A program made the translations under genes and the position numbers. Shown in pieces: positions 1,754-18,876 of a stretch of 39,649 nucleotides of DNA. Origin of the DNA: a virus. How positions within the stretch are numbered: position 1 is the first letter of the stretch; each line of letters begins with the position of its first letter. The notes under the pieces were generated by a model. It did not search any database. It saw nothing but the letters and a program-made list of their open reading frames with translations, and was not told the DNA's origin. The stretch lies in the IMG/VR virus record IMGVR_UViG_3300045988_106623; one strand, given 5' to 3'.

Positions 1754-1810
1754 TGTTTTCCCCTTTCTCGGGATGGATTGTTGTTTGTGGCCCACGGTCG
1801 TGGGTCAGGA
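1751..1810 (-). repeat. Leader/translation-initiation block, copy b (homologous to 4835..4892)
   Basis: Shares the perfect 29-mer tgtttgtggcccacggtcgtgggtcagga, the RBS and the first codons (M)VNN with copy a. Confidence 0.7.
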
Positions 1811-1837
1811 TTATCGGGGCCCACTCGGGGCCGTCAA
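1810..1837 (-). promoter_or_regulatory. Sigma70-like promoter for the lysis genes (TTGACG-16-GATAAT on the minus strand)
   Basis: On the + strand, cgtcaa at 1832..1837 and attatc at 1810..1815 with a 16-nt spacer, directly after the terminator at 1840..1869. Confidence 0.45.
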
Positions 1838-1873: not shown

Positions 1874-2206
1874 TCAGTCGATCTTGTACAGGCGGGGAGT
1901 GAACGTCTTATCGACCTCGCCCGTGGTGTTGACGAAAATGTTGCATTGGAGAGTGCCGGCCTTCAAGGTTTTCGGCCCATAGTTACGAGGTCCGAACACA
2001 TTTGCTCCTTCGCTCCCGTCGTCGTGGGAGATATGGGCTTGTATGCCCATCAGCCATGAATTGTTGCCCAGCGGCCAGTCCGTGGCGTCCATCGTGTACG
2101 TGCCCGCGTCCACATGGACGGAACATGTCAGGCTATCCCACGAGTCAACCTTTTGTGTGGTGGAGCCTTTGAACCGGTACGTGCCCGGCGATGGTTCCGT
2201 GACCAT
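1874..2206 (-). CDS. CBM-like beta-sandwich module C. No visible RBS; probably expressed only as a -1 fusion to 2266..2796
   Basis: The 110-aa ORF's frame is open upstream to the TGA at 2285..2287, which abuts the G8 tract. The upstream linker in that frame contains LANLYP, resembling SRNLLAYGP in the neighbouring module. Confidence 0.5.
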   Translation of the reverse strand: MVTEPSPGTYRFKGSTTQKVDSWDSLTCSVHVDAGTYTMDATDWPLGNNSWLMGIQAHISHDDGSEGANVFGPRNYGPKTLKAGTLQCNIFVNTTGEVDKTFTPRLYKID

Positions 2207-2265: not shown

Positions 2266-2796
2266 CTAGCTCATAGCCCCCCCCTCAAGGCTTGTGACAT
2301 CGGGTTTCATCCACTCGTGCGCGGTGTTCCCGAGTTCGAGTTGGATTTTCAGGTTGCCCGACACGCTGCCGGCCGTGACGCCGCCACGCAAGATGCGCAG
2401 CTCGACGCGTGTGGTCCCCTTGGGGATGGTGACCACGGTGTTGTTTTTCCCCTGATAGACGCCGCCGAGGCTATTCGCGTTGGCGTAGAGGCTGATGACC
2501 AGGTTTCCGGGCACATCGCCCGTGTAGGAGATGATGAGAGGCACGCCAACGATGCCTTCGGGCACGTCGAACTCCCAGCGCACGCCCTTGTGCAATGGCA
2601 CCGATTCGGTGCCGCTGCTGAAATCAAGCGACCCGTCCTGCGCCACGGTGACGGTCAGACCGTTGCCCTCGGCGGGACCGTAGGCGAGCAGGTTACGCGA
2701 CAATACGGTAATCGGCACGGTTTTCGTAATCTTGCCGGCGGTCAGTTTCAGACTCGTGGACCCCGGTTTGATACCGGTTATTGATAGTGCGCCCAT
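2266..2796 (-). CDS. C-terminal half of a Big_2 Ig-like domain + CBM-like module B
   Basis: Starts MGALSITGIKPGSTSLKLTAGKITKTVPITV (the second half of Big_2). Strong RBS aaaggagg. The G8 tract lies in codons 171-174. Confidence 0.7.
   Translation of the reverse strand: MGALSITGIKPGSTSLKLTAGKITKTVPITVLSRNLLAYGPAEGNGLTVTVAQDGSLDFSSGTESVPLHKGVRWEFDVPEGIVGVPLIISYTGDVPGNLVISLYANANSLGGVYQGKNNTVVTIPKGTTRVELRILRGGVTAGSVSGNLKIQLELGNTAHEWMKPDVTSLEGGAMS
2277..2284 (-). repeat. G8 homopolymer (C8 on the + strand) in slippery register G_GGG_GGG
   Basis: The minus strand reads ctt gag ggg ggg gct atg agc tag. The 12-mer TAGCCCCCCCCT is shared with 3265..3276. Confidence 0.9.
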
Positions 2797-2839
2797 ATTG
2801 GGGCCTCCTTTTTATGGTGAAGGCCCCAATATCGGGGCC
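2795..2839 (-). promoter_or_regulatory. Two mutually exclusive hairpins around the RBS/AUG of 2266..2796
   Basis: ggcccc(2822..2827)/ggggcc(2834..2839) forms a local hairpin after the upstream stop. Alternatively ggccccaatat (2822..2832) pairs with atattggggcc (2795..2805), covering part of the SD and the AU of the AUG. Confidence 0.35.
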
Positions 2840-3298
2840 TTAGTTGAGTTTCCTGAGAATTGGGGTGATGGTTGCGTCCACGGTCTTGCCGGGCGAGACA
2901 CTGACGAGCATCTGGTAGTCGCCCGCCGGGAGCGTCGCCTTGACCTTGCCATGCGAGAACAGGTCGATCCTGCCGTCCGTGGATTTGAGCTCGCAGAACG
3001 GGCCGACACCGTCGGCGATCGTGTGTTCGAGCGTGTACTCGCCGGCCGGCAGGTCCTGGGTGACGAGGATGGTCGCCCAGTCGGTCGCTGTGCCCTTCGC
3101 GTGTACCATGCCGTCGCCGGCTGCGGTGAACGTGATTCCGTTGCGCGTGGCGGGCAGGGTGGGCAGCACCCATTTGTTTCCCCATACACTGACCGGGATG
3201 GTCTTTACGATGCTGCCTGCGGTGATGGTGATGGAGGTGTCGCCCTCCTTGAGGGCGCGGACACTAGCCCCCCCCTTAAACGCTGTTGTTGTTGGCAT
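2840..3298 (-). CDS. C-terminal half of a Big_2 Ig-like domain + CBM-like module A
   Basis: MPTTTAFKGGASVRALKEGDTSITITAGSIVKTIPVSV followed by a domain of about 110 aa. ATG at 3298 with RBS aagggg. The longer 240-aa track ORF is an upstream shadow extension. Confidence 0.65.
   Translation of the reverse strand: MPTTTAFKGGASVRALKEGDTSITITAGSIVKTIPVSVWGNKWVLPTLPATRNGITFTAAGDGMVHAKGTATDWATILVTQDLPAGEYTLEHTIADGVGPFCELKSTDGRIDLFSHGKVKATLPAGDYQMLVSVSPGKTVDATITPILRKLN
3268..3275 (-). repeat. G8 homopolymer (C8 on the + strand) in codons 8-11 of 2840..3298
   Basis: The minus strand reads ttt aag ggg ggg gct agt. G7 or G9 would truncate the protein. Confidence 0.9.
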
Positions 3299-3309
3299 GA
3301 TATTGCCCC

Positions 3310-3861
3310 TTACTGTTGTCTGACTGATGCGAGACTCACATCCTTGATGGATGCCGTATACTCCTGCGATGCCGCATCGGGCAGGATCGTCACCTTGAGG
3401 TTCTTGCTCTCGCCGACGCGCAGGGTGATGTTGTCGATGGGTTTGCCGGAATCGTCCGTGACCTTGATGGACTCGGGCGCGTAGGCCGCGCTGATGGACA
3501 CGGCGGCGGAAGTGAAACCGTTGACCGTGGCCGTCACCAATATGGTTCCGCCATGCCGCCACGTGAGCGTGTTGCCCGAAACCGTGGCGGTGGAAGTGTC
3601 CCTGCTCGCGAACGTCACGTCCTTGGTGGTGAGCAGGTCGCCAACATGACCGTCCGCATACGTGGCTTTCGCCCCCAGTTTCAGGGTGCCGGATACGGCC
3701 AGAGACTTGGGCAACGGCTTGCCCTTATCATCCGTGATATTGACGGAGACGACCGTGTCCTTGTCGAGGGGCCACACGAGCTTGCCATTGAACATGGCGT
3801 TGTACGTGTGGCCTCCCATCAACGGTTTGCCGACACGTTTGCCGGCGTATAGGGCTGGCAT
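3310..3861 (-). CDS. Tail-associated protein: N-terminal segment + one complete Big_2 domain + N-terminal half of a second Big_2 domain
   Basis: The complete domain ends ...TATVSGNTLTWRHGGTILVTATVNGFTSAAVSISA. The second stops at ...LKVTILPDAASQEYTASIKDVSLASVRQQ*, in the middle of the fold. Confidence 0.65.
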   Translation of the reverse strand: MPALYAGKRVGKPLMGGHTYNAMFNGKLVWPLDKDTVVSVNITDDKGKPLPKSLAVSGTLKLGAKATYADGHVGDLLTTKDVTFASRDTSTATVSGNTLTWRHGGTILVTATVNGFTSAAVSISAAYAPESIKVTDDSGKPIDNITLRVGESKNLKVTILPDAASQEYTASIKDVSLASVRQQ

Positions 3862-3863
3862 GG

Positions 3864-4730
3864 TCAGGCTCCCTTCACGGTGGCCTTCTTGGCCTTGGCT
3901 GGCGTGGAGTCCTTGCCGGGTTCCTCCGTGGTTTCCTCGGTGGTGCCGGTGTCGGTGGTGCCTTCGGTGGTGCCGGTGGAAGGCAGTACGGTGGTCGCAG
4001 CCTCCGCCTTGTCCTTGACCGCCTGCACCGTCGAATCGATGGCGGCGATGGCCGTCTCGCCCTTCGCCGCGACCATGGAAGCGGTGTCGGCCACGGTCTG
4101 CGAATCGTTGGCGACGCTAGCCGCCAACGTGTTGGCGTTCGACGCGAGGATATTAAGGTCGGACTGGGTGGCGGTCGCGGAATCAGCCAAGGACTGTGCG
4201 CTCAGCATGGCGCTCCTAGCCAACGCGGCGTTCGTCTGCGCTTCGGCCGTGATGGACTCCAACGTGCTCATGGCCATAGCGGCCTTCATGGTCGTGGCGG
4301 TCTCGTCGAAGAGCACCACCGCATCCGGGTATCGGGCGGAAAGCGTCTCAGCCTCCGACTGGGTGGAAGCGTGGCGAACCTTCAGCAATTGGGAGCCCTG
4401 CATGTCCTTCGGGACGAACGTGCCCGCGTCAACCTCCACGAGGTCGGCGTATTCGACCTTGGTCTTGGAGTCCGGCACTTCGACGTAGCGCGTGTACGCT
4501 TGCGGCGAATCAGCCAACTCCACAACCTGCCACACGAAAGCGGGCGTCGTAGGCAGCAGGTCAACCGTCAGCTCACCCGTCTCGGACAAGTCCGCGTCGA
4601 ACGAGGCCGCGATGATGAGGTTCTTGTCCGCGTCGAAATGGCGACGTACCGGACGGAATCGCATCAGGCCGGTGACCGGGTCCAGGCCGCCGGTCTTCGG
4701 CTTCCTGATGCTGATATGGATTTGGGTCAT
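3864..4730 (-). CDS. Putative tail fibre/structural protein (Ala-rich coiled-coil centre, Thr/Glu-rich C-terminus)
   Basis: 288 aa with strong RBS aaggagg. Call rests on position in the distal tail region. No catalytic motif recognised. Confidence 0.4.
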   Translation of the reverse strand: MTQIHISIRKPKTGGLDPVTGLMRFRPVRRHFDADKNLIIAASFDADLSETGELTVDLLPTTPAFVWQVVELADSPQAYTRYVEVPDSKTKVEYADLVEVDAGTFVPKDMQGSQLLKVRHASTQSEAETLSARYPDAVVLFDETATTMKAAMAMSTLESITAEAQTNAALARSAMLSAQSLADSATATQSDLNILASNANTLAASVANDSQTVADTASMVAAKGETAIAAIDSTVQAVKDKAEAATTVLPSTGTTEGTTDTGTTEETTEEPGKDSTPAKAKKATVKGA

Positions 4731-4735
4731 GATTA

Positions 4736-4837
4736 TTACTCCTCCTTAATGGATTCGGTTATGGTTTCGGGGGCTACGTCCGGGCGAAGCTCGTCCGGCA
4801 GCGAGGGCTTGGGATGACGTTTCAAATTGTTGACCAT
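4736..4837 (-). CDS. Small ORF (33 aa) starting MVNN, behind leader copy a
   Basis: ATG at 4837 with RBS aaaaggg. The first four codons and the leader are homologous to the endolysin start. Below the ORF-track cutoff. Confidence 0.35.
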   Translation of the reverse strand: MVNNLKRHPKPSLPDELRPDVAPETITESIKEE

Positions 4838-4892
4838 GTTTCCCTTTTCTCTGGGATGGATATTGTTTGTGGCCCACGGTCGTGGGTCAGGA
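4835..4892 (-). repeat. Leader/translation-initiation block, copy a (homologous to 1751..1810)
   Basis: Same 29-mer plus flanking similarity. Contains the small hairpin cccac-ggtc-gtggg and overlaps the stop of 4887..5192. Confidence 0.7.
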
Positions 4893-5192
4893 CTGTCGTG
4901 GCGCTATCGGCGCGGATTGGATGTCATTGTTGAGCGATGTCCCGTGGCCGTTGCCGCCCAGGCTGTGATAGCTGTCGTAGAGGCGTTGGGAGCGTGATTT
5001 GAGGTCCTCGTCCGCCACTCCGTCGTGCTCGATGACCATTTCGCGGCGCAGGTCCTCCAACTGGCACAGCAGGAGCTCGCGCAGCCCGTTGACCATGGCT
5101 TTGCCCCATCGCCACATCAGGCCCAAAACCGTGGCCACTCCGCCACAGATAAAAGGCACGAGCCAATCGACGACGTGAGCGAGCAAAGACAT
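4887..5192 (-). CDS. Membrane protein (single N-terminal TM helix); function unknown, possibly lysis-related
   Basis: 101 aa. N-terminus WLVPFICGGVATVLGLMW. RBS aaaggag. Confidence 0.4.
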   Translation of the reverse strand: MSLLAHVVDWLVPFICGGVATVLGLMWRWGKAMVNGLRELLLCQLEDLRREMVIEHDGVADEDLKSRSQRLYDSYHSLGGNGHGTSLNNDIQSAPIAPRQS

Positions 5193-5214
5193 GGAAAAGC
5201 TCCTTTACGTTGGG

Positions 5215-5265
5215 AAAACCCACACGTTCGTCCCCGTTGGATAGGCCAACGGGCGTGTGGGTTTT
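5215..5265. terminator. Nested, bidirectional-looking stem-loop filling the gap between 4887..5192 and the recombinase gene
   Basis: Outer 12-bp stem aaaacccacacg/cgtgtgggtttt and inner 8-bp stem cccgttgg/ccaacggg. A/T runs are part of the outer stem on both sides. Confidence 0.5.
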
Positions 5266-5277
5266 CGGAGGTTGAAA

Positions 5278-6147
5278 ATGCTGTTACAAGAGTTTTGGAA
5301 CGACCGGTTTTGGCCGCATTGCACGCGGAATCTGCGTGAGAGCACGCGCGTGGGCTACGAGTCCGCGTGGCGGCTGCATGTCATGCCATGCTTCGGCGGC
5401 ATGGGTATGGACGCGATAAGCGTGGAGCTAGTGGACAAATGGCTTGCGAATTTCGACACTGCGGGCGCGGCACGCAAGGCATGGGCCGTATTGCGCGCGA
5501 TACTCAGGCGGGCTATCCGCTGGAACCTGTTGGACGTGGACATCACCAGACGCGACATCCAACTGCCGGCCAAACCTCATTACGAGCCGCGAATATTGAC
5601 CCTCCGTCAGCAGCGTGCACTGTTGCGGGGCTTTTACGGTCATCCGCTTGAGGCGTGGCTTATCTGTGCCGTCTCATGCGGACTCCGCACCGAAGAGGGC
5701 TACGGGCTTGAATGGTCGGATATTGACCTGCGCTCAGGTGTCCTGCACGTGGAGCGTGGCCTGCAATGGGTCGCCGGGCATGAGGCCGTCGTGCCGCCGA
5801 AAACCGAACTGTCCCGCCGCACGCTCCCGTTGCCGCGCTTCGCGGTCAAACGATTGCGCGAGCTCAGGCCACGCGAGGGGGGCCGACTCATCGGCACCCT
5901 CACCCCGCCGCAAGCCGCACGCCAATACAAGGCCTACTGCAAGCGGCATGATCTGCCGCATGTGCCCGCACGCAACCTGCGCCACTCATGGGCGACGAAC
6001 ACTCTGGCCGCCGGGGCTGACATCGCCATCGTGAGCAAAATGCTCGGCCACAGCGACATCAAAACCACCGCAAAGTACTACCTCAAACCGGATATCTCAG
6101 CCCTGCGAGACGCGCAACGCCTCTGGGAACGAGCCTTAACGGCCTGA
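5278..6147 (+). CDS. Tyrosine site-specific recombinase (shufflon invertase, Rci/Rin-like role)
   Basis: Shows ...CGLRTEEG..., NLRHSWATN and LGHSDIKTTAKYY (the R..HxxR..Y catalytic pattern). ATG at 5278 with RBS ggagg. Opposite strand to the tail genes and directly next to the repeat sites. Confidence 0.85.
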   Translation: MLLQEFWNDRFWPHCTRNLRESTRVGYESAWRLHVMPCFGGMGMDAISVELVDKWLANFDTAGAARKAWAVLRAILRRAIRWNLLDVDITRRDIQLPAKPHYEPRILTLRQQRALLRGFYGHPLEAWLICAVSCGLRTEEGYGLEWSDIDLRSGVLHVERGLQWVAGHEAVVPPKTELSRRTLPLPRFAVKRLRELRPREGGRLIGTLTPPQAARQYKAYCKRHDLPHVPARNLRHSWATNTLAAGADIAIVSKMLGHSDIKTTAKYYLKPDISALRDAQRLWERALTA

Positions 6148-6149
6148 AC

Positions 6150-6164
6150 GGGATTCCCTAACCC
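6150..6164 (+). repeat. Recombination site A (gggattccctaaccc), inverted relative to B, C and D
   Basis: Perfect 15-bp inverted repeat of 7462..7476. Confidence 0.8.
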
Positions 6165-6469
6165 AGACCGAAGTGCTGACGCTGATTAACTCCACTTACG
6201 GTACCGTCAAAGGCTACCGTCGCGGCTCGCTCGTCACGTTGCGCATCGACTGGAAGTCGTCGGCGTCCGGCGCGTGGAACACCGGCAATTTCGGAACCCT
6301 GCCCGAAAGCTGGCGTCCTCCAATGGACTTGAACTTCTCCTACGGCGGACGCGACGGCGCGAACCAGAAGATCATCAACGTAAACGCGAACGGAACCATG
6401 ACCTACGCCAATCAGGGCGGCACGCAGGGCACGGACGCGTTCGGCATGACCGTCTCATACGCGCTATGA
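6155..6469 (+). other. Silent RBP C-terminal cassette A' (104 aa from the SLT codons)
   Basis: tcc cta acc in the site is in frame with the track ORF 6173..6469. Contains LPESWRP, resembling IPKGFRP in the expressed cassette. Confidence 0.65.
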
Positions 6470-6520
6470 CCCGTGGGGTCACTGCAAGACAGTGCAACCG
6501 CCTGAGCCAGTGTCCCGAAG

Positions 6521-6847
6521 CTATGCGGCGGGCATCGGGTCGGCGGTCCTCCATACGCCGGTGCATCCCGCGTACGCGCTGTTCGGATTGCCAAGCATCG
6601 TGACGGTGCCATTGGCCTCGCCGTAACAGATGAATGTCGTTTCACCACCGAAAACGGCCACGGGCGTATTGACGGTGACGGGTCGATACCCTTCGGGGAG
6701 CTTCTCCTGAGCCTTCGTGTAATTGTTCTGCCCGCTACTGTTGAATTTTACGTTGCCACCCATGAAACAGATATCACCGATGCGCGTAAGCAAAATGCTG
6801 TCGCTGCTGTAAGGTACTCGCCACGTCGTAAAACGCTGGGTTAGGGA
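6521..6847 (-). other. Silent RBP C-terminal cassette B' (108 aa from the SLT codons)
   Basis: The frame is open from the site codons (6847) through track ORF 6521..6793. Contains LPEGYRP. No RBS or ATG of its own. Confidence 0.65.
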
Positions 6848-6848
6848 A
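6838..6848 (-). repeat. Recombination site B (core gggttagggaa)
   Basis: Shares ctgggttagggaa with the reverse complement of site A. Confidence 0.7.
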
Positions 6849-6850
6849 AA

Positions 6851-7144
6851 CTATTGCCTGTTCCAGATTGCGATCCAGCTTCCGAATATCGCGACCCTCC
6901 CGCACCAGCGGTTGTCTTTGGTGTTCCACAGGCGGAAGCGTATCTGGTTTACGTCGCTGGTATCCCAACGTTGTGCGGTGTACTCGCCGGCCTGGCCGAA
7001 ACCAGTGCCGAACGGCCCAATCGTGTAGGCCGCGTAATCGGCTTTCTTCCCGTTTGGGGATTGGACGTTGATGTAGAATGTGCCGTCATCATTCGTGGTG
7101 ATGGTATGGCCTCCGCACAGAATATACGGCATTCGGGTTAGGGA
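6851..7144 (-). other. Silent RBP C-terminal cassette C' (97 aa from the SLT codons), unrelated in sequence to the others
   Basis: The site codons tcc cta acc (7144..7136) are in frame with track ORF 6851..7132. Confidence 0.6.
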
Positions 7145-7145
7145 A
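7135..7145 (-). repeat. Recombination site C (core gggttagggaa)
   Basis: Lies 2 nt after the stop of the expressed RBP gene and immediately 5' of cassette C'. Confidence 0.7.
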
Positions 7146-7147
7146 AG

Positions 7148-7963
7148 CTACGCGGTAATCCAACAGCCGGATATACCGACGAATCGGCTGGTATATCCGG
7201 TGCCGTTCAACACCATTTTCCCCTCCGGCGTGCCGTAAAGGTAGAAACTGGTCGCGCCGCTGTTGTCGGTGCCGCGCATGACCGCGCGGGAATCGCCGGA
7301 CGGTCTGAAACCCTTCGGGATTGTCTCGTTGACGGATGTGTTGCTGGTCTGATTGAAATTGCTTGTCAGCGTGATATACGCGCAGGCGGTGACGATACGG
7401 CCGACACGAACCAGAGTGATATGCCTGTCGGAATACGGCATCTTGACTTGGCCCGTGACAGGGGTTAGGGAATCCCACACGTCGCTCATCGGCTTCAACA
7501 CGTTGAACAATGCGACTGGTGTGCCGATGGTGATGCCGTCCAGCGGGATGCGGTACAAGGGCATGTCGTAGGTGGTGCCCCCGTCCAACGGGCTGGTGGT
7601 GTTCACGGCGGGGTCGGTGGGCGTGCCCGTGGTGGGCGTGCCCCTGACCACGACCAGTTTCGCGCTCTCAACCGACTGCGAGCCCTTCGCATAGCGGCAT
7701 ACGATGAGATCGTTGCGTTTCTGACCCTGCGACCCGTTGGTGACGATCAGGTCCTCGGGCGTGCCCTGGCTGACGTGACGGCCCTGCATGACCAGTTCGC
7801 CCGTGCCGATGGTCACCTTGTTCGCCGAAACGACCGTAAGCTCGAACTTGTCGTGCACGTCGAGCACATAATCATCCAAGCCGAGAATGCCGGCGTTCAA
7901 ACCAGCGGCCTGTTCCGCCGTGGCGTGAGCCTTGTTCGCGTGCCCGGTGACGAGTTCAACCAT
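7148..7963 (-). CDS. Receptor-binding/tail fibre protein: constant N-terminal part (7963..7472) joined at site D to the expressed cassette D'
   Basis: 271 aa. Site D encodes WDSLTP inside the ORF. Last gene of the tail block. Confidence 0.65.
   Translation of the reverse strand: MVELVTGHANKAHATAEQAAGLNAGILGLDDYVLDVHDKFELTVVSANKVTIGTGELVMQGRHVSQGTPEDLIVTNGSQGQKRNDLIVCRYAKGSQSVESAKLVVVRGTPTTGTPTDPAVNTTSPLDGGTTYDMPLYRIPLDGITIGTPVALFNVLKPMSDVWDSLTPVTGQVKMPYSDRHITLVRVGRIVTACAYITLTSNFNQTSNTSVNETIPKGFRPSGDSRAVMRGTDNSGATSFYLYGTPEGKMVLNGTGYTSRFVGISGCWITA
7462..7476 (-). repeat. Recombination site D (gggttagggaatccc) inside the RBP gene
   Basis: In frame (tcc at 7471..7469). Perfect inverted partner of site A. 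Confidence 0.8.
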
Positions 7964-13674: not shown

Positions 13675-14390
13675 TTATCCGAAGAGCTTGCTCATATGCG
13701 TTTCGGCCTCGTGGATCTCCTCGGCGGTGGGCTCGTCCGTTTCGGGTTCGCCGTCCACGTCGCCGAGCAGCGTGGAAGCGCCGAGGAACTGCAATACGGT
13801 GATGTCGGTGGCGCTCATGGGGAACATGAGGCCGATGAGCGAGGCTCCCGTGTAGGAGGACGGGTCGCCGCACAGCGCCGTGTACAGGTCGATGGCGTCA
13901 CGGTAGGGGAGACGCCGGCCGAGATCGTGTTCGATGCTCCACCCGAATCGGGCGAAGTCCGCTCGGACCTTTACTCCGTCATCGGAGTTGAGGATTCGGC
14001 AGAAGTCGGCGATTTTCCCAGTTCGACGCCCTGTGATTTGGCGAGCGTCTCCCCGTAGTCCTGGATGAGGTTGAACGCGACCTGCATGGGTTCGTGTTCG
14101 AGTCGTTCGGCCTGCTCGTCGCCGGCGAAAACGGTGAGGATGCGTTTGACCTGTTCGAGGCTTTCCGTGTCGGTCTGTGTGTTCGACAGGGCCTCGAAGT
14201 CGGCGATGGAAAGATAGAGGGGCAGTTTGTAGACGGTGCCGCCGGGTGTCAGTGCCCAGTATTCGTTGTCCTTGATGACGTGGCGCACCTTGATCTGCTT
14301 GGCGACCTCGGCGATGGCCTCGGCCTCCCTGGTCTCGTCCCAATCCTCGAATTCAGCGATCGAGGGTGCCATATTCTGCTGCTTTGCCAT
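13675..14390 (-). CDS. Tail assembly chaperone GT-like fusion made by a -1 programmed frameshift at 14013..14019
   Basis: The G frame reads ...ELGKSPTS...*. After a slip on G_GGA_AAA the frame reads GKIADFCRILNSDDG... and stays open to 13675. Confidence 0.75.
13971..14390 (-). CDS. Tail assembly chaperone (G-like, zero-frame product)
   Basis: 139 aa, acidic, between the major tail protein and the tape measure. Confidence 0.75.
   Translation of the reverse strand: MAKQQNMAPSIAEFEDWDETREAEAIAEVAKQIKVRHVIKDNEYWALTPGGTVYKLPLYLSIADFEALSNTQTDTESLEQVKRILTVFAGDEQAERLEHEPMQVAFNLIQDYGETLAKSQGVELGKSPTSAESSTPMTE
14013..14019 (-). promoter_or_regulatory. -1 slippery heptamer G_GGA_AAA (G/GT site)
   Basis: The minus strand reads gaa ctg gga aaa tcg, with the heptamer in register X_XXY_YYZ. 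Confidence 0.75.
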
Positions 14391-15847: not shown

Positions 15848-16231
15848 CTACCCCTTCCACTCGGTGAGCTGGACTTCCAATGTGGGCTGCCAGCCGGTAA
15901 AGGCGTTGGCATCGCGGCTGGGGAAGCCGCTGACCTCCCACATGCGGCCATCGGCCGGTTCGGGTCGGATACGGTCACCAAGCCGGATGTCCGCGTTCGG
16001 GTCGGCCACGGTGAGCACCGCAGTCGACGTGGTCTGCACGTCCAAAACGTCGGGCGTGCGAGTCGAACTGCTCGAAGCCAAAGCTCCTCGCACTTCCAAT
16101 TCGACGGGTTTCGTCCAGTCCTCGGTGGTCTGCGCGGGATTGTACGGGTCGGGTTTGCGTGAGGCGCGCAGACGCACGAACCGTGTGGCCGCCGGCAGGC
16201 CGGAGGCGTTGATGTCATCGATGATGCTCAC
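15848..16231 (-). CDS. Head closure/head-tail joining protein (by position)
   Basis: 127 aa from GTG 16231, in a GTGA overlap with the upstream stop. Confidence 0.5.
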   Translation of the reverse strand: MSIIDDINASGLPAATRFVRLRASRKPDPYNPAQTTEDWTKPVELEVRGALASSSSTRTPDVLDVQTTSTAVLTVADPNADIRLGDRIRPEPADGRMWEVSGFPSRDANAFTGWQPTLEVQLTEWKG

Positions 16232-16755
16232 GGCAATGCTCCCAGCTTGTACCGGTCGAGTTTCGCCAGCTCGTCGGCCATCAGGGTCACGTTGTAGGTG
16301 ACGCTGCTGCCGTTGACCGACTGGGATTGGACGATGCCGGCGGCTGCGCTGCTGGCCCGTTTCGCCGCGTTTATGAGCACCCCCTGTACATCCGGCACCT
16401 CGTCCGGCGCATAACCGGCGTGGATGCGGTAGCGTATCGTGGCCACGCCGGCCGGGAAAACGCCGGCGGTGCATTCCACCAAACCCGTGGCGGGGTCGTA
16501 GGCGTAGTGCAGCCGGTTGCCGGCGATATCGGTCAGCTCATCCACCGACGTGACATGGCGTGCGGGGAGGCGAATCACCTTGCCTCCCAGCGAATTGACC
16601 ACGCCCGACAGTTCGATGTTCGGCGTGATATGCCAGCCGCACGTGCGACGGATGGCCGCCTGCGCCGCCTTGACCCAGAATGTCCCGTCCGCGTCGAACA
16701 CTGTCGGATCCTGGATCATGTCGGGGATTGCCCCCGTGGAGGATACGACGCTCAT
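16228..16755 (-). CDS. Head-tail connector/adaptor protein (by position)
   Basis: 175 aa. Its ATG at 16755 overlaps the stop of the Ig-like ORF. Confidence 0.5.
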   Translation of the reverse strand: MSVVSSTGAIPDMIQDPTVFDADGTFWVKAAQAAIRRTCGWHITPNIELSGVVNSLGGKVIRLPARHVTSVDELTDIAGNRLHYAYDPATGLVECTAGVFPAGVATIRYRIHAGYAPDEVPDVQGVLINAAKRASSAAAGIVQSQSVNGSSVTYNVTLMADELAKLDRYKLGALP

Positions 16756-16919
16756 AGCCCCTCGCTTTCGATGGTTGCGATGCTCGGGTCTGCGATTCGG
16801 GCCGTGAACTCCTGTGACGCTTCGGCTGGGAGGACTGACACCTCGAGTCTCGCCGTCTCGCCGACCCTCATCGCGAGGGCGTCGGGTGTGACGGCGATAC
16901 TCTCGGCGTCAGGCGTCAC
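16752..16919 (-). CDS. N-terminal half of a Big_2 Ig-like domain in the -1 frame of the capsid gene 3' end (likely a capsid C-terminal extension)
   Basis: Reads VTPDAESIAVTPDALAMRVGETARLEVSVLPAEASQEFTARIADPSIATIESEGL*. About 55-60% identical to the truncated half-domain ending 3310..3861. Below the ORF-track cutoff. Confidence 0.6.
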   Translation of the reverse strand: MTPDAESIAVTPDALAMRVGETARLEVSVLPAEASQEFTARIADPSIATIESEGL

Positions 16920-18118
16920 TTCGAGGCTTTTCCCAGTGCGACCTTGACGAAAGCCTTCGGATACTTGACCTGCAGGGCGAGGCGTTCCTTAACTCGGAAC
17001 GTGATCTTGTCGTTGGTGAAGTCGTTCTCATGGCTGTTGGTGGATTCGACGGTAAGACCGCCCTTGCGGTAGATGGTGCCGCCAGCCTTGAACGCGCCGA
17101 CGAGCACGGTGCCCTTGGTCATCGCCTCGGTGACCACGGTGCGCAGTCCCCACAGCGGCGGGTTCTGCATGATGCCGCCGTTGCCGTACTGTCCGGCGAA
17201 GAAGCCACCGCCGAAATACTGGCCGTTCGCGTCCTTGGACAGGCGGATGGCCTGATAGTCCGCCGGATTGATGACCACGGCGTCGGCGGAGAAGCCGGTC
17301 GCGGTGGCGATATCCGTGGTGGCCGCGAAGATGCGGTCGGGGTCGGAATCGTTGGCCTGCGCCTTGGTCTGGATTTCGCGGTTCAGAATGCCATTGAGAT
17401 TCGGGTCGGTGCCATCGCCGGACAGGAGTTGAATCTCCTCCTGCAGCTTCAGGTTGTACTGGGCGTGCTGGTTGATCTCGGACACGACGAAAGGCAGGTC
17501 TTCCGCCATATCGTCTGTGATCTTCCACCATGCGGCGATCTCATGCAGGCTGTCGGACACCCAAGTCGGATCCGGCATGTGAATCTGAGGCTTCTGCCCG
17601 CCTTCGGCGACGGTGGTAGCGTTGCCTTCGAACGCGCCGTAGACCGGGTATTTGATGGTGGTGCCGCTCATGGTGCCGGACGCGAAAAGGTCGGCGATGA
17701 CGAGCGGACGCTCATACGGCCATACGCCGTTCTGGTCGGTCTGGGTGAGATACGGCGCGTAGGCTCCGGACGCTCCGCCTGTGGCCTGAGTGTCGGAAGC
17801 GGCCTTGAATTCCGGAGTGGAGAACAGGCCTCCCTTGGTGGCGAGCACGCTCAAGCCCTTCTCCTGCAGGGACTTGACGTAGAAGTCGCCGAGGGTCTTC
17901 GCCTCGACGCCCTTATGCTCGGTCTTGGACGCTCCGGCGAGCTTGTCGAGTCCTTCGCCGGCCTCCTTGAACAGGTCGATACGCTCCTGCAGCTTCTTCG
18001 CCTCGGCGTAATGATGCTTCAGCTCCTCCTGCTCCTTTTCGGTGATGTTATCCATTCCCTTGGCGAGAATGGACTGTGCCGCCTTCTTCTCGACGGCGAG
18101 ATTGTCCATGAGATTCAT
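16916..18118 (-). CDS. Major capsid protein (HK97 fold family)
   Basis: 400 aa from ATG 18118 (RBS gaaaggag). N-terminal delta-like coiled segment. Follows the prohead protease. Confidence 0.85.
   Translation of the reverse strand: MNLMDNLAVEKKAAQSILAKGMDNITEKEQEELKHHYAEAKKLQERIDLFKEAGEGLDKLAGASKTEHKGVEAKTLGDFYVKSLQEKGLSVLATKGGLFSTPEFKAASDTQATGGASGAYAPYLTQTDQNGVWPYERPLVIADLFASGTMSGTTIKYPVYGAFEGNATTVAEGGQKPQIHMPDPTWVSDSLHEIAAWWKITDDMAEDLPFVVSEINQHAQYNLKLQEEIQLLSGDGTDPNLNGILNREIQTKAQANDSDPDRIFAATTDIATATGFSADAVVINPADYQAIRLSKDANGQYFGGGFFAGQYGNGGIMQNPPLWGLRTVVTEAMTKGTVLVGAFKAGGTIYRKGGLTVESTNSHENDFTNDKITFRVKERLALQVKYPKAFVKVALGKASK
16928..16934 (-). promoter_or_regulatory. Candidate -1 slippery heptamer G_GGA_AAA, 4 codons before the capsid stop
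   Basis: The minus strand reads gca ctg gga aaa gcc tcg aag tga. The 10-mer actgggaaaa is identical to the G/GT site. Confidence 0.6.
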
Positions 18119-18132
18119 GACTCTCCTTTCGG

Positions 18133-18876
18133 TTAATGTTCCAGCGAGAAGAAGTCGCTGATGGTTTGGTATTCCTTGGCCCACTGCGGGTCAAAGCTTT
18201 TCTGGTCTTTCTTCTTCGGGTCATCCGTGGAATCGTCCGGCTGGTCGCTGGAATCATCCGTGGAGTCATCGGTGTCGTCGTCCGGCTTCTTGTTGTCGGA
18301 ATCGATGCCATCCAAGACCTCGTGCAGACTGTCCAACGCGGCACGAAGCTTGCTCTCGTTGGAAGCGCTGATCGCGCGTCCGCTCTTCACTTCAAGCACC
18401 TCGGCACCCTGATTCGCGGCCACCTGCACAAGCGAAATCTCGAACAATTTCACCTGACGAATCTCACGGTATCCATCCCACGCGCTCTTACCGTCCTGCA
18501 CGAACGCGGTCTCCTCGGCGATGTAGCCGATGCTCATCTGGTGGATGAGCCCGCGTTTCAGCAGGTCGTATGCGCGCTTGCCTTCCGGCAGATCAAGGTC
18601 AAGGCGGGCCGTGACCAGCAGGCCATGCTCGTCCTCCACCGCGCTCAACGTCTCGCCGATGATGTCGGTGGGCTTGTCGTCCTTGTGCTGCCAGTGAATC
18701 GGGATGCCCGCGCCGGAACCTTGGAAATCGTTCTGCAAAGTGTCGGCGAAAGCGCCCTTGACGATCACGTCATCGTACAAGTCCTTGTCCCACGTCGAGG
18801 CGTAGCCGCTGAAAACGCCCTCGCCTTGACTGTCATCAAGGGATTTCAGCTCGAAGCCCTTGAAATCAAGCCTCAT
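18133..18876 (-). CDS. Prohead maturation protease (HK97/S78-type) with acidic C-terminal tail
   Basis: 247 aa from ATG 18876, in an ATGA overlap with the portal stop. Lies between portal and capsid. Confidence 0.75.
   Translation of the reverse strand: MRLDFKGFELKSLDDSQGEGVFSGYASTWDKDLYDDVIVKGAFADTLQNDFQGSGAGIPIHWQHKDDKPTDIIGETLSAVEDEHGLLVTARLDLDLPEGKRAYDLLKRGLIHQMSIGYIAEETAFVQDGKSAWDGYREIRQVKLFEISLVQVAANQGAEVLEVKSGRAISASNESKLRAALDSLHEVLDGIDSDNKKPDDDTDDSTDDSSDQPDDSTDDPKKKDQKSFDPQWAKEYQTISDFFSLEH

Follow-up and report, generated by a model that had tools for sequence, protein, structure and literature searches.

The window analyzed here is the IMG/VR virus record IMGVR_UViG_3300045988_106623, a stretch of 39,649 nucleotides (nt) whose structural genes lie on the minus strand. 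Our subject is the 3′ end of its major capsid protein gene, where a slippery heptamer precedes a −1 reading frame that encodes half of an immunoglobulin (Ig)-like domain. The host is most probably Bifidobacterium, and the virus a prophage of a type common in the human gut. Named homologues come from B. pseudocatenulatum and B. longum; the top genome match is a metagenome-assembled genome labelled Collinsella. The capsid is of the HK97 type (Pfam Phage_capsid, E 8.7e-36). Its open reading frame (ORF) spans 16916..18184, and the likely start is the ATG at 18118, which is preceded by the Shine-Dalgarno sequence GAAAGGAGA. Read from this codon (16916..18118, minus strand), the zero-frame product has 400 amino acids (aa) and ends ...KVALGKASK*. 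The gene closes with the codons gca ctg gga aaa gcc tcg aag tga, within which G_GGA_AAA (16928..16934, minus strand) stands in the X_XXY_YYZ register, 4 codons ahead of the capsid stop. An earlier sequence-only reading of this DNA had noticed the heptamer in this register and position, and had described a −1 frame that stays open for 58 codons and whose stop overlaps the next ATG. The letters and their translation bear out both statements: the −1 frame reads GKSLEVTPDAESIAVTPDALAMRVGETARLEVSVLPAEASQEFTARIADPSIATIESEGL* from the heptamer, and its stop, TGA at 16754..16752, overlaps the ATG of a head-tail adaptor gene (16228..16755, minus strand; PHROG head-tail adaptor, E 4e-28). The Shine-Dalgarno sequence of the adaptor (GAGGGG, pairing energy −12.5 kcal/mol) sits within the final codons of the extension.

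The −1 frame extension (16752..16934, minus strand) consists of a linker (SLEVTPDAES) followed by the N-terminal half of a Big_2 Ig-like domain. It matches the Pfam Big_2 profile (PF02368) at 32.7 bits (E 7.5e-8, cut-off 22.8), covering only positions 3-53 of 79 before the ORF stops, so that the domain is incomplete. A second incomplete Big_2 occurs elsewhere in the window, in a 183-aa protein of the structural locus (3310..3861, minus strand). There, one complete Big_2 is followed by a C-terminal N-half (approximately 3313..3474) that matches profile positions 11-50. The two half domains break off at the same point of the fold to within about three residues (Big_2 position 53 versus 50), as had been proposed from the sequence alone. 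The 55-60% identity that had been put forward for them proved too high: BLASTP gives 44% (24/54 columns, including a gap of 6 residues), which rises to about 49% when only the ungapped core is counted.

The slippery site is of a kind that this phage seldom uses. In 5717 codons of 14 confident genes, only five X_XXY_YYZ heptamers (Y = A or T) stand in register. Two of these are GGGAAAA, both at most 16 codons from a stop. The other three, GGGTTTG, GGGTTTG, and GGGTTTC at 16486, 8738, and 7313 (minus strand), are found inside the adaptor, 322-aa, and receptor-binding protein (RBP) genes, far from gene ends. Counting back from the capsid stop, only 23 codons are open in the −1 frame. With five heptamers in 5717 codons and a productive window of 23 codons, the chance of one landing there is about 2%. 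GGA and AAA are also minority codons in this phage (15% and 32%, respectively).

The second in-register GGGAAAA is the slippery heptamer of the G/GT tail-chaperone genes (14013..14019, minus strand). It is held by a G-like ORF at 13971..14390 and joins it to a −1 ORF ending at 13675, just upstream of the 1196-aa tape measure gene. This heptamer is conserved in 36 of 38 related loci, together with a 114-codon −1 ORF. The capsid and chaperone sites share the 10-mer ACTGGGAAAA, an identity already claimed in the sequence-only reading, and the window holds exactly two copies of it (the capsid site and 14013..14022). The expected number is 0.05, and at least two copies arose in 0 of 100 shuffles.

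Relatives were gathered from IMG/VR, GTDB genomes, and JGI/ENA metagenomes. A comparison of their capsid 3′ ends, which had been suggested as a check on the frameshift, couples the heptamer tightly to the extension. Among 79 distinct capsid 3′ contexts, 19 bear the extension, and all 19 spell Leu-Gly-Lys as CTG GGA AAA. None of the 60 contexts without the extension does so, and none contains a slippery heptamer; they read CTC GGC AAG (55), CTT GGC AAG (3), TTG GGC AAG (1), or CTC GGT AAG (1). The heptamer is also present in all of 10 further metagenome loci that carry the extension. Each of the 38 loci examined keeps the extension ORF open, with L111 stopping two codons early. The extension is near-identical in two capsid clades whose preceding 100 nt diverge by about 20%. 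Thus, heptamer and extension move as one recombination block, which begins approximately 15-20 nt ahead of the heptamer.

Purifying selection on the −1 frame is shown, by the pattern of substitutions, in a diverged lineage represented by L205 and L234. The extension in this lineage is 66% identical in protein and differs at 44 of 138 nt (32% nucleotide divergence). Across that distance CTGGGAAAAGC is unchanged and the −1 frame remains open. The differences fall 13, 7, and 24 at the first, second, and third −1-frame codon positions, which corresponds to a synonymous difference (pS) of 0.62, a non-synonymous difference (pN) of 0.21, and a dN/dS of about 0.18. The L205 extension matches Big_2 positions 4-49. 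In the main lineage the signal is weaker, with 6 synonymous versus 9 non-synonymous events and a pairwise pN/pS of 0.37, a value similar to the 0.26 of the adjacent adaptor gene.

The strongest single evidence for a programmed frameshift is comparative and comes from a second phage group (L256, L260, L268, L270, L272, and L279). Its capsid protein has 315 aa and matches Pfam Phage_capsid, with no BLASTP similarity to the capsid of the window (E 3.6). The capsid gene ends gcc cca aaa gtg tga, in which C_CCA_AAA lies in register three codons ahead of the stop. The −1 frame then reads PKSVTPAPQSIETSPETVTVRAGETTNVTVRVLPEGADQTVTATVADKSIATVVSDD (PKSVTPAPQ...SIATVVSDD) and covers Big_2 positions 3-48 only. 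The tail tube gene of these phages (Pfam Phage_TTP_17) likewise has C_CCA_AAA at its end, three codons short of the stop. From there the −1 frame adds about 150 codons and closes with an N-half Big_2, whose motif starts 111 codons past the heptamer. These tail tube extensions lie at approximately 4775..5240 in L256, L264, L270, and L272 and at 4775..5243 in L260, and they are followed by genes for the complementary half domain that are described below. Within group-2 genomes, the capsid and tail-tube half domains are identical over a stretch of 57 nt. At the G/GT site, this group has C_CCA_AAC. Each phage group thus re-uses its own chaperone-type slippery motif for a half Big_2.

The anatomy of the site, the coding constraint on the −1 frame, and the obligatory link between heptamer and extension are shown by the sequence and its comparison. 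We consider it probable that a programmed −1 ribosomal frameshift operates at the capsid G_GGA_AAA. Comparative genomics lends good support to what the sequence-only reading had proposed, namely, that such a shift would add a half Big_2 to a fraction of capsid subunits. In the mechanism that we envisage, a minority of ribosomes on ...CTG GGA AAA GCC... would slip one base back at the heptamer. The P-site tRNA-Gly would re-pair from GGA to GGG and the A-site tRNA-Lys from AAA to AAA. Ribosomes that slipped would read 58 further codons rather than ending after ‘ASK’. The predicted product is a minor capsid isoform about 6 kDa larger than the zero-frame protein, with a C terminus made of the short linker and the first five Big_2 strands. 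Its predicted tryptic peptide is SLEVTPDAESIAVTPDALAMR, preceded by ...ALGK. We infer that the extension would be displayed on the capsid exterior, an expectation based on the T7-type display of the 10B isoform.

The RNA downstream of the heptamer adds a candidate element. When the 98 nt downstream are folded, a stable 78-nt hairpin (16835..16912, minus strand) begins 15 nt past the heptamer, with a minimum free energy of −51.3 kcal/mol (z −3.9 versus shuffles). In the L205 lineage, a hairpin of the same architecture (−50.3 kcal/mol) shows three compensatory pairs and two wobble changes, alongside some breaks; the three double changes were reached by only 2 of 500 column shuffles. This hairpin is a possible modulator of frameshifting. 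No equivalent hairpin was found at the group-2 capsid site, and an Rfam search of the RNA region matched no family. A shorter stem of 6 bp, gtgacg/cgtcac, had been suggested 8 nt downstream of the heptamer in the sequence-only reading. Its complementarity is genuine and arises because Val-Thr codons stand on both arms; the folded structure is not borne out by prediction, as detailed next. We regard a stimulatory RNA structure at the capsid site as unproven.

Several observations weigh against a programmed frameshift. The stimulators of −1 frameshifting usually lie 5-9 nt downstream of the heptamer, and the 15-nt spacing of the large hairpin exceeds this range. The gtgacg/cgtcac stem is weak (−6.3 kcal/mol), with a pair probability of about 0.3 when 45 nt are folded and of 0 when 98 nt are folded. 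Because heptamer and extension travel as one recombination block, the contrast between 19 and 60 contexts is not a set of 79 independent events. Indeed, the extension-bearing sequences amount to two extension lineages and one independent group only. Finally, a search for a natural in-frame fusion of capsid and Big_2 gave none, only separately called ORFs of 69-77 aa.

These ORFs are the annotation that would be expected if the extension were an independent small gene. The capsid stop and a −1-frame GTG overlap as GTGA (16916..16919, minus strand). Re-initiation at this GTG, the only candidate independent start (ORF 16752..16919), would yield a free 55-aa half-Ig peptide. This arrangement has points in its favor. 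The GTGA overlap is conserved in every extension lineage, as coupled re-initiation would have it, GTGACGCC is common even to the group-2 capsid, and the adaptor that follows has a similar ATGA coupling. A separate ‘Ig-like domain-containing protein’ is what gene callers, PGAP among them, make of the extension. We nevertheless judge re-initiation unlikely. The GTG at 16919 has no Shine-Dalgarno sequence: its pairing with the anti-Shine-Dalgarno is −4.2 kcal/mol, versus −9 to −13 kcal/mol at essentially every true start here, or −7 to −13 kcal/mol when those of the cassettes at 2266..3298 are counted in. Re-initiation also leaves unexplained why a heptamer of rare codons stands in register in every lineage and on two capsids dissimilar in sequence. 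In the tail-tube equivalent, the corresponding position holds CTG, not GTG, and no start stands at the junction with its −1 extension of about 150 aa. Moreover, a free half domain would have no evident route into the virion. A second alternative holds that the extension is a nonfunctional recombination scar, left when a copy of a half-domain module came to lie downstream of the capsid gene and not meaningfully expressed, and that it shares its break point with the tail-locus copy through descent from it. The mobility of the block, its near-identity across capsid clades that are about 20% different just upstream, and the variability of the slot between capsid and adaptor genes in relatives are in keeping with a scar. 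So are the weaker selection signal of the main lineage, its non-conservative changes (L to P, R to M), and its one early stop. A scar would not account for the dN/dS of 0.18 and the third-position excess of the diverged lineage, for an invariant heptamer and a frame open in every locus examined, or for the recurrence of the arrangement with a different heptamer on a dissimilar capsid, and we regard it as very improbable. Two technical explanations were rejected outright. The site offers an A4 run only, which is too short for transcriptional slippage, and 38 independent assemblies show the same frame arrangement, which excludes an assembly error.

If a programmed frameshift does append the half domain, the rest of the fold deserves attention. 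In this phage group, the C-terminal half of Big_2 (approximately positions 54-79) leads separately translated proteins. We refer to the N-half as a socket and to the C-half as a plug. Two cassettes lie downstream of the 183-aa socket gene. Cassette 1 (2840..3298, minus strand) has its own Shine-Dalgarno sequence (−7.2 kcal/mol) and an ATG at 3298, and cassette 2 (2266..2796, minus strand) has a Shine-Dalgarno sequence of −12.2 kcal/mol and an ATG. Each encodes a C-half Big_2 and then a beta-sandwich domain. A 110-aa beta-sandwich ORF (1874..2206, minus strand; PHROG 35108) belongs to the family of the cassette 1 body and is fused to cassette 2 in 307-aa forms. Plug loci in relatives follow the same plan, with one to three same-strand ORFs downstream of the socket gene, each with its own Shine-Dalgarno sequence and ATG. 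These ORFs start with a leader of 1-8 residues, followed by the C-half (for example, GALSITGIKPGSTSLKLTAGKITKTVPITV) and the beta-sandwich body.

The separation of the two halves is consistent across relatives. Intact relatives of the 183-aa protein, drawn from about 80 loci and 296 database homologues, end either in one N-half (about 183 aa) or in a tandem pair (231-238 aa). Frameshifts or premature stops cut a few ORFs of this type short. Variants of the terminus are ...ASVRQQ, ...ATINSKE, ...ATIKQ, ...ATVTKEA, ...ATTA, and ...ASISRKGVNHG. In none of these loci and homologues was an N-half joined to a C-half, or a complete terminal domain, found. From the other side, cassette 2 has 1231 homologues. 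The 120 listed measure approximately 174-178 or 289-308 aa, with most at 176 or 307, which leaves no room in any of them for an added N-half. Judged from these sequences, the truncation of the domain is a conserved feature of design rather than a chance event. In P0150, the group-2 tail-tube socket is found on a 183-aa-type protein, which implies that socket types swap between contexts.

A conserved half domain cannot plausibly fold alone, and it thus points to a second component. Joined in silico, the two halves rebuild a Big_2 match. The extension followed by the N terminus of cassette 2 covers Big_2 positions 3-79 at 46.9 bits, a gain of about 14 bits over the extension alone, and with the N terminus of cassette 1 it covers positions 3-73 at 47.5 bits. 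The tail N-half scores 17.2 bits by itself and 32.1 bits, over positions 11-79, when joined to cassette 2. No binding module is present on the socket-bearing proteins, and no candidate attachment element other than the C-half on the plug proteins. For the tail locus, the best reading of these sequences is trans-complementation, in which the plug would insert into the socket. What the plugs would carry is less well defined. The bodies of the cassettes have no Pfam or PDB sequence match and belong to PHROG families of unknown function. A Foldseek search with a low-confidence model of a plug protein returned collagen-binding, CUB, and carbohydrate-binding module (CBM) tandems at a template modeling score of about 0.2, that is, generic tandem beta-sandwiches only. 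The label of CBM that the sequence-only reading gave to these bodies is therefore unconfirmed; the model resembles tandem beta-sandwich binding modules in general.

By extension to the head, the half domain on the capsid may be a docking socket that is completed in trans by the three-strand C-half of the proteins encoded at 2266..3298. With the plugs docked, both head and tail would be decorated with beta-sandwich modules. Such docking, already proposed in the sequence-only reading, fits the anatomy of the genes; we put it forward as a possibility that falls short of being probable. A plug locus is present in 6/6 phages with the extension and in 6/7 without it, and so does not tell the two apart, which counts against docking. 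AlphaFold2 gave a mean predicted local distance difference test (pLDDT) score of 59 for the 307-aa plug protein and of 40 for the tandem-socket protein, too low for either model to be usable for the half domains. The frameshift might equally well serve another end: the half domain might pair with the halves of neighboring subunits, fold with some other partner, or act as a flexible adhesive tail. We hold this only tentatively. The tandem N-halves of the 231-238-aa tail-locus forms suggest that N-halves might pair together, and one extension variant ends in an acidic tail (EEPSADEEQADGSSMVETE) instead of at the loop. No plug gene adjoins the capsid gene, and, as the counts above indicate, the plug locus is just as frequent in phages that lack the extension. 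None of these uses of the half domain accounts for the reconstruction of a single Big_2 match by N-half and C-half, or for plug proteins that have no other attachment element and begin exactly at the break in >1000 sequences. Nor does any of them account for the identity over 57 nt of the capsid and tail-tube sockets of one genome.

It is useful to set this arrangement beside known systems. Capsid frameshifts that give Ig-like extensions are known from T3, Lactobacillus phage A2, and Listeria A118/A500, with a +1 shift in PSA (PMC5009743), and they have been predicted for MSTV1-like archaeal viruses (PMC11375127). K1F gene 10b has likewise been cited as a capsid frameshift precedent (PMC13370021). 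The A2 gp5A/5B, T3, A118/A500, and MSTV1-like cases resemble ours in three respects: the slippery site precedes the capsid stop by a few codons, the longer isoform is a minor one, and what is added is Ig-like. In the known cases the appended Ig-like domain is reportedly complete, as Fraser et al. are said to have described in 2006. The capsid extension of the window departs from A2, T3, and A118/A500 in this respect, since it comprises Big_2 positions 3-53 of 79 only and its truncation is conserved. The T7/K1F 10A/10B pair also arises by a −1 frameshift near the capsid 3′ end (PMC13370021; PMC5009743), and the extension of the 10B isoform is displayed on a subset of capsid subunits (PMC13370021). 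The T7 extension tolerates and displays foreign domains; unlike the present one, it has no Ig-like character, nor is it known to recruit another protein.

Other parallels concern the parts of the system. The lambda-type G/GT tail assembly chaperone frameshift, reportedly described by Xu et al. in 2004 (cited in PMC8008677), uses the same heptamer class, which in this phage extends to the identical 10-mer. The product of G/GT is a chaperone absent from virions, whereas the capsid product here would be structural. Completion of an incomplete Ig-like fold by another polypeptide is familiar from donor-strand complementation in chaperone-usher pili and from engineered split Ig domains such as SpyTag/SpyCatcher. 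Pili donate a single strand, whereas here about three strands (approximately 30 aa) would come from a phage adhesin-like protein. For T4 Hoc and other Ig-like head decoration proteins (PMC13370021), the expected outcome is similar, with Ig-like or beta-sandwich modules exposed on a gut-phage head. Hoc, however, is a separate protein that binds the capsid lattice, whereas here the capsid gene itself would supply the attachment point, by recoding. The Rin shufflon of bifidoprophages (PMC6109161) belongs to the same phage group and also varies the C termini of a tail protein with small cassettes. Rin joins its cassettes by DNA inversion at rix sites, whereas the socket and plug genes have no rix site and each plug has its own start codon.

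The window itself contains a complete Rin shufflon at 5257..7963, as described for bifidoprophages (PMC6109161). The armless tyrosine invertase gene rin (5257..6147, plus strand) is accompanied by four exact copies of the 11-bp rix site TTCCCTAACCC, one on the plus strand (6154-6164) and three on the minus strand (6838-6848, 7135-7145, and 7462-7472). A rix site cuts the RBP constant gene (7148..7963, 271 aa), and the small variable Rv cassettes (6851..7132, 6521..6793, and 6173..6469, the last inverted) are flanked by rix. Many IMG/VR contigs end near 7459, at the rix site that the RBP gene contains, as expected for an invertible region. A shufflon origin of the split Ig domain, suggested by the nearness of the invertase gene to the socket and plug locus, was considered and rejected: rix sites occur only at 6154-7472, with none near the socket, plug, or capsid genes, and no plug cassette was inverted in the related loci inspected for orientation.

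Homopolymer tracts mark the plug genes. Near the end of cassette 2, a G8 tract (2277..2284) places G_GGG_GGG in register at 2278..2284, and one extra G or a −1 slip there fuses the 176-aa ORF to the downstream 110-aa ORF. Both the 176-aa and the 307-aa forms are abundant in the database and 95-99% identical, which suggests that phase variation or recoding switches the protein between one and two modules. In cassette 1, a G8 tract (3268..3275) encodes ‘GG’ just past the start, and in many relatives the ORF is broken right after it (for example, ...MPTTTAFRGG*), so that this tract looks like an on/off switch for the plug protein. In L260, a G7 tract throws the tail tube extension out of frame, which is either another homopolymer switch or an assembly error. 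A different kind of interruption is seen in L134, where a 434-aa transposase-like ORF on the opposite strand (approximately 4650..5954) breaks cassette 1 in what looks like an insertion sequence event.

The surroundings of the sockets vary as well. A 75-nt direct repeat (80% identity) at 1757..1831 and 4839..4913 brackets a 3-kb module with the 288-aa, 183-aa, and cassette genes. In group 2, a 101-aa gene directly adjoins the lysin gene, and the socket and plug module sits after the tail tube gene. The module thus appears to be mobile. On the head side, the slot between the capsid and adaptor genes contains, in different relatives, the extension, a 118-aa gene (VKQYRLADASKAKVD...), a 131-aa gene, or none of these. 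Examples of slots without the extension are 4201..4559 in L002 and 1393..1788 in L001. Where the slot is empty, the capsid ends in an Ala/Lys-rich tail (...KAAAKAAAKAE). We regard the slot as a variable position of head decoration.

In effect, that a capsid frameshift can add an Ig-like domain was already known. What is new is a conserved half domain on two capsids dissimilar in sequence and on a tail tube, with the other half translated separately; no description of such a half-domain socket and plug design was found in the literature searched. A broader scheme, which we offer as conjecture and think somewhat doubtful, is that bifidobacterial prophages use a split Ig domain as a universal plug and socket. 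Through −1 frameshifting, capsid and tail tube would receive N-half sockets in sub-stoichiometric amounts, and a fiber-locus protein has sockets as well. C-half plugs would lead interchangeable beta-sandwich adhesins whose expression and length would be toggled by poly-G tracts, so that a few phase-variable modules would decorate the whole virion.

Ig-like capsid isoforms made by frameshifting are thought to aid the adhesion of gut phages to mucus or to host glycans. If the half domains are sockets, they would represent a new way to attach interchangeable adhesins to both head and tail. The same design would also offer a natural split-domain tag for phage display. More broadly, three devices of recoding or phase variation, namely, frameshifting on the capsid and tail tube genes and the poly-G tracts, would then be parts of one decoration system in prophages that are very common in human-gut Bifidobacterium.

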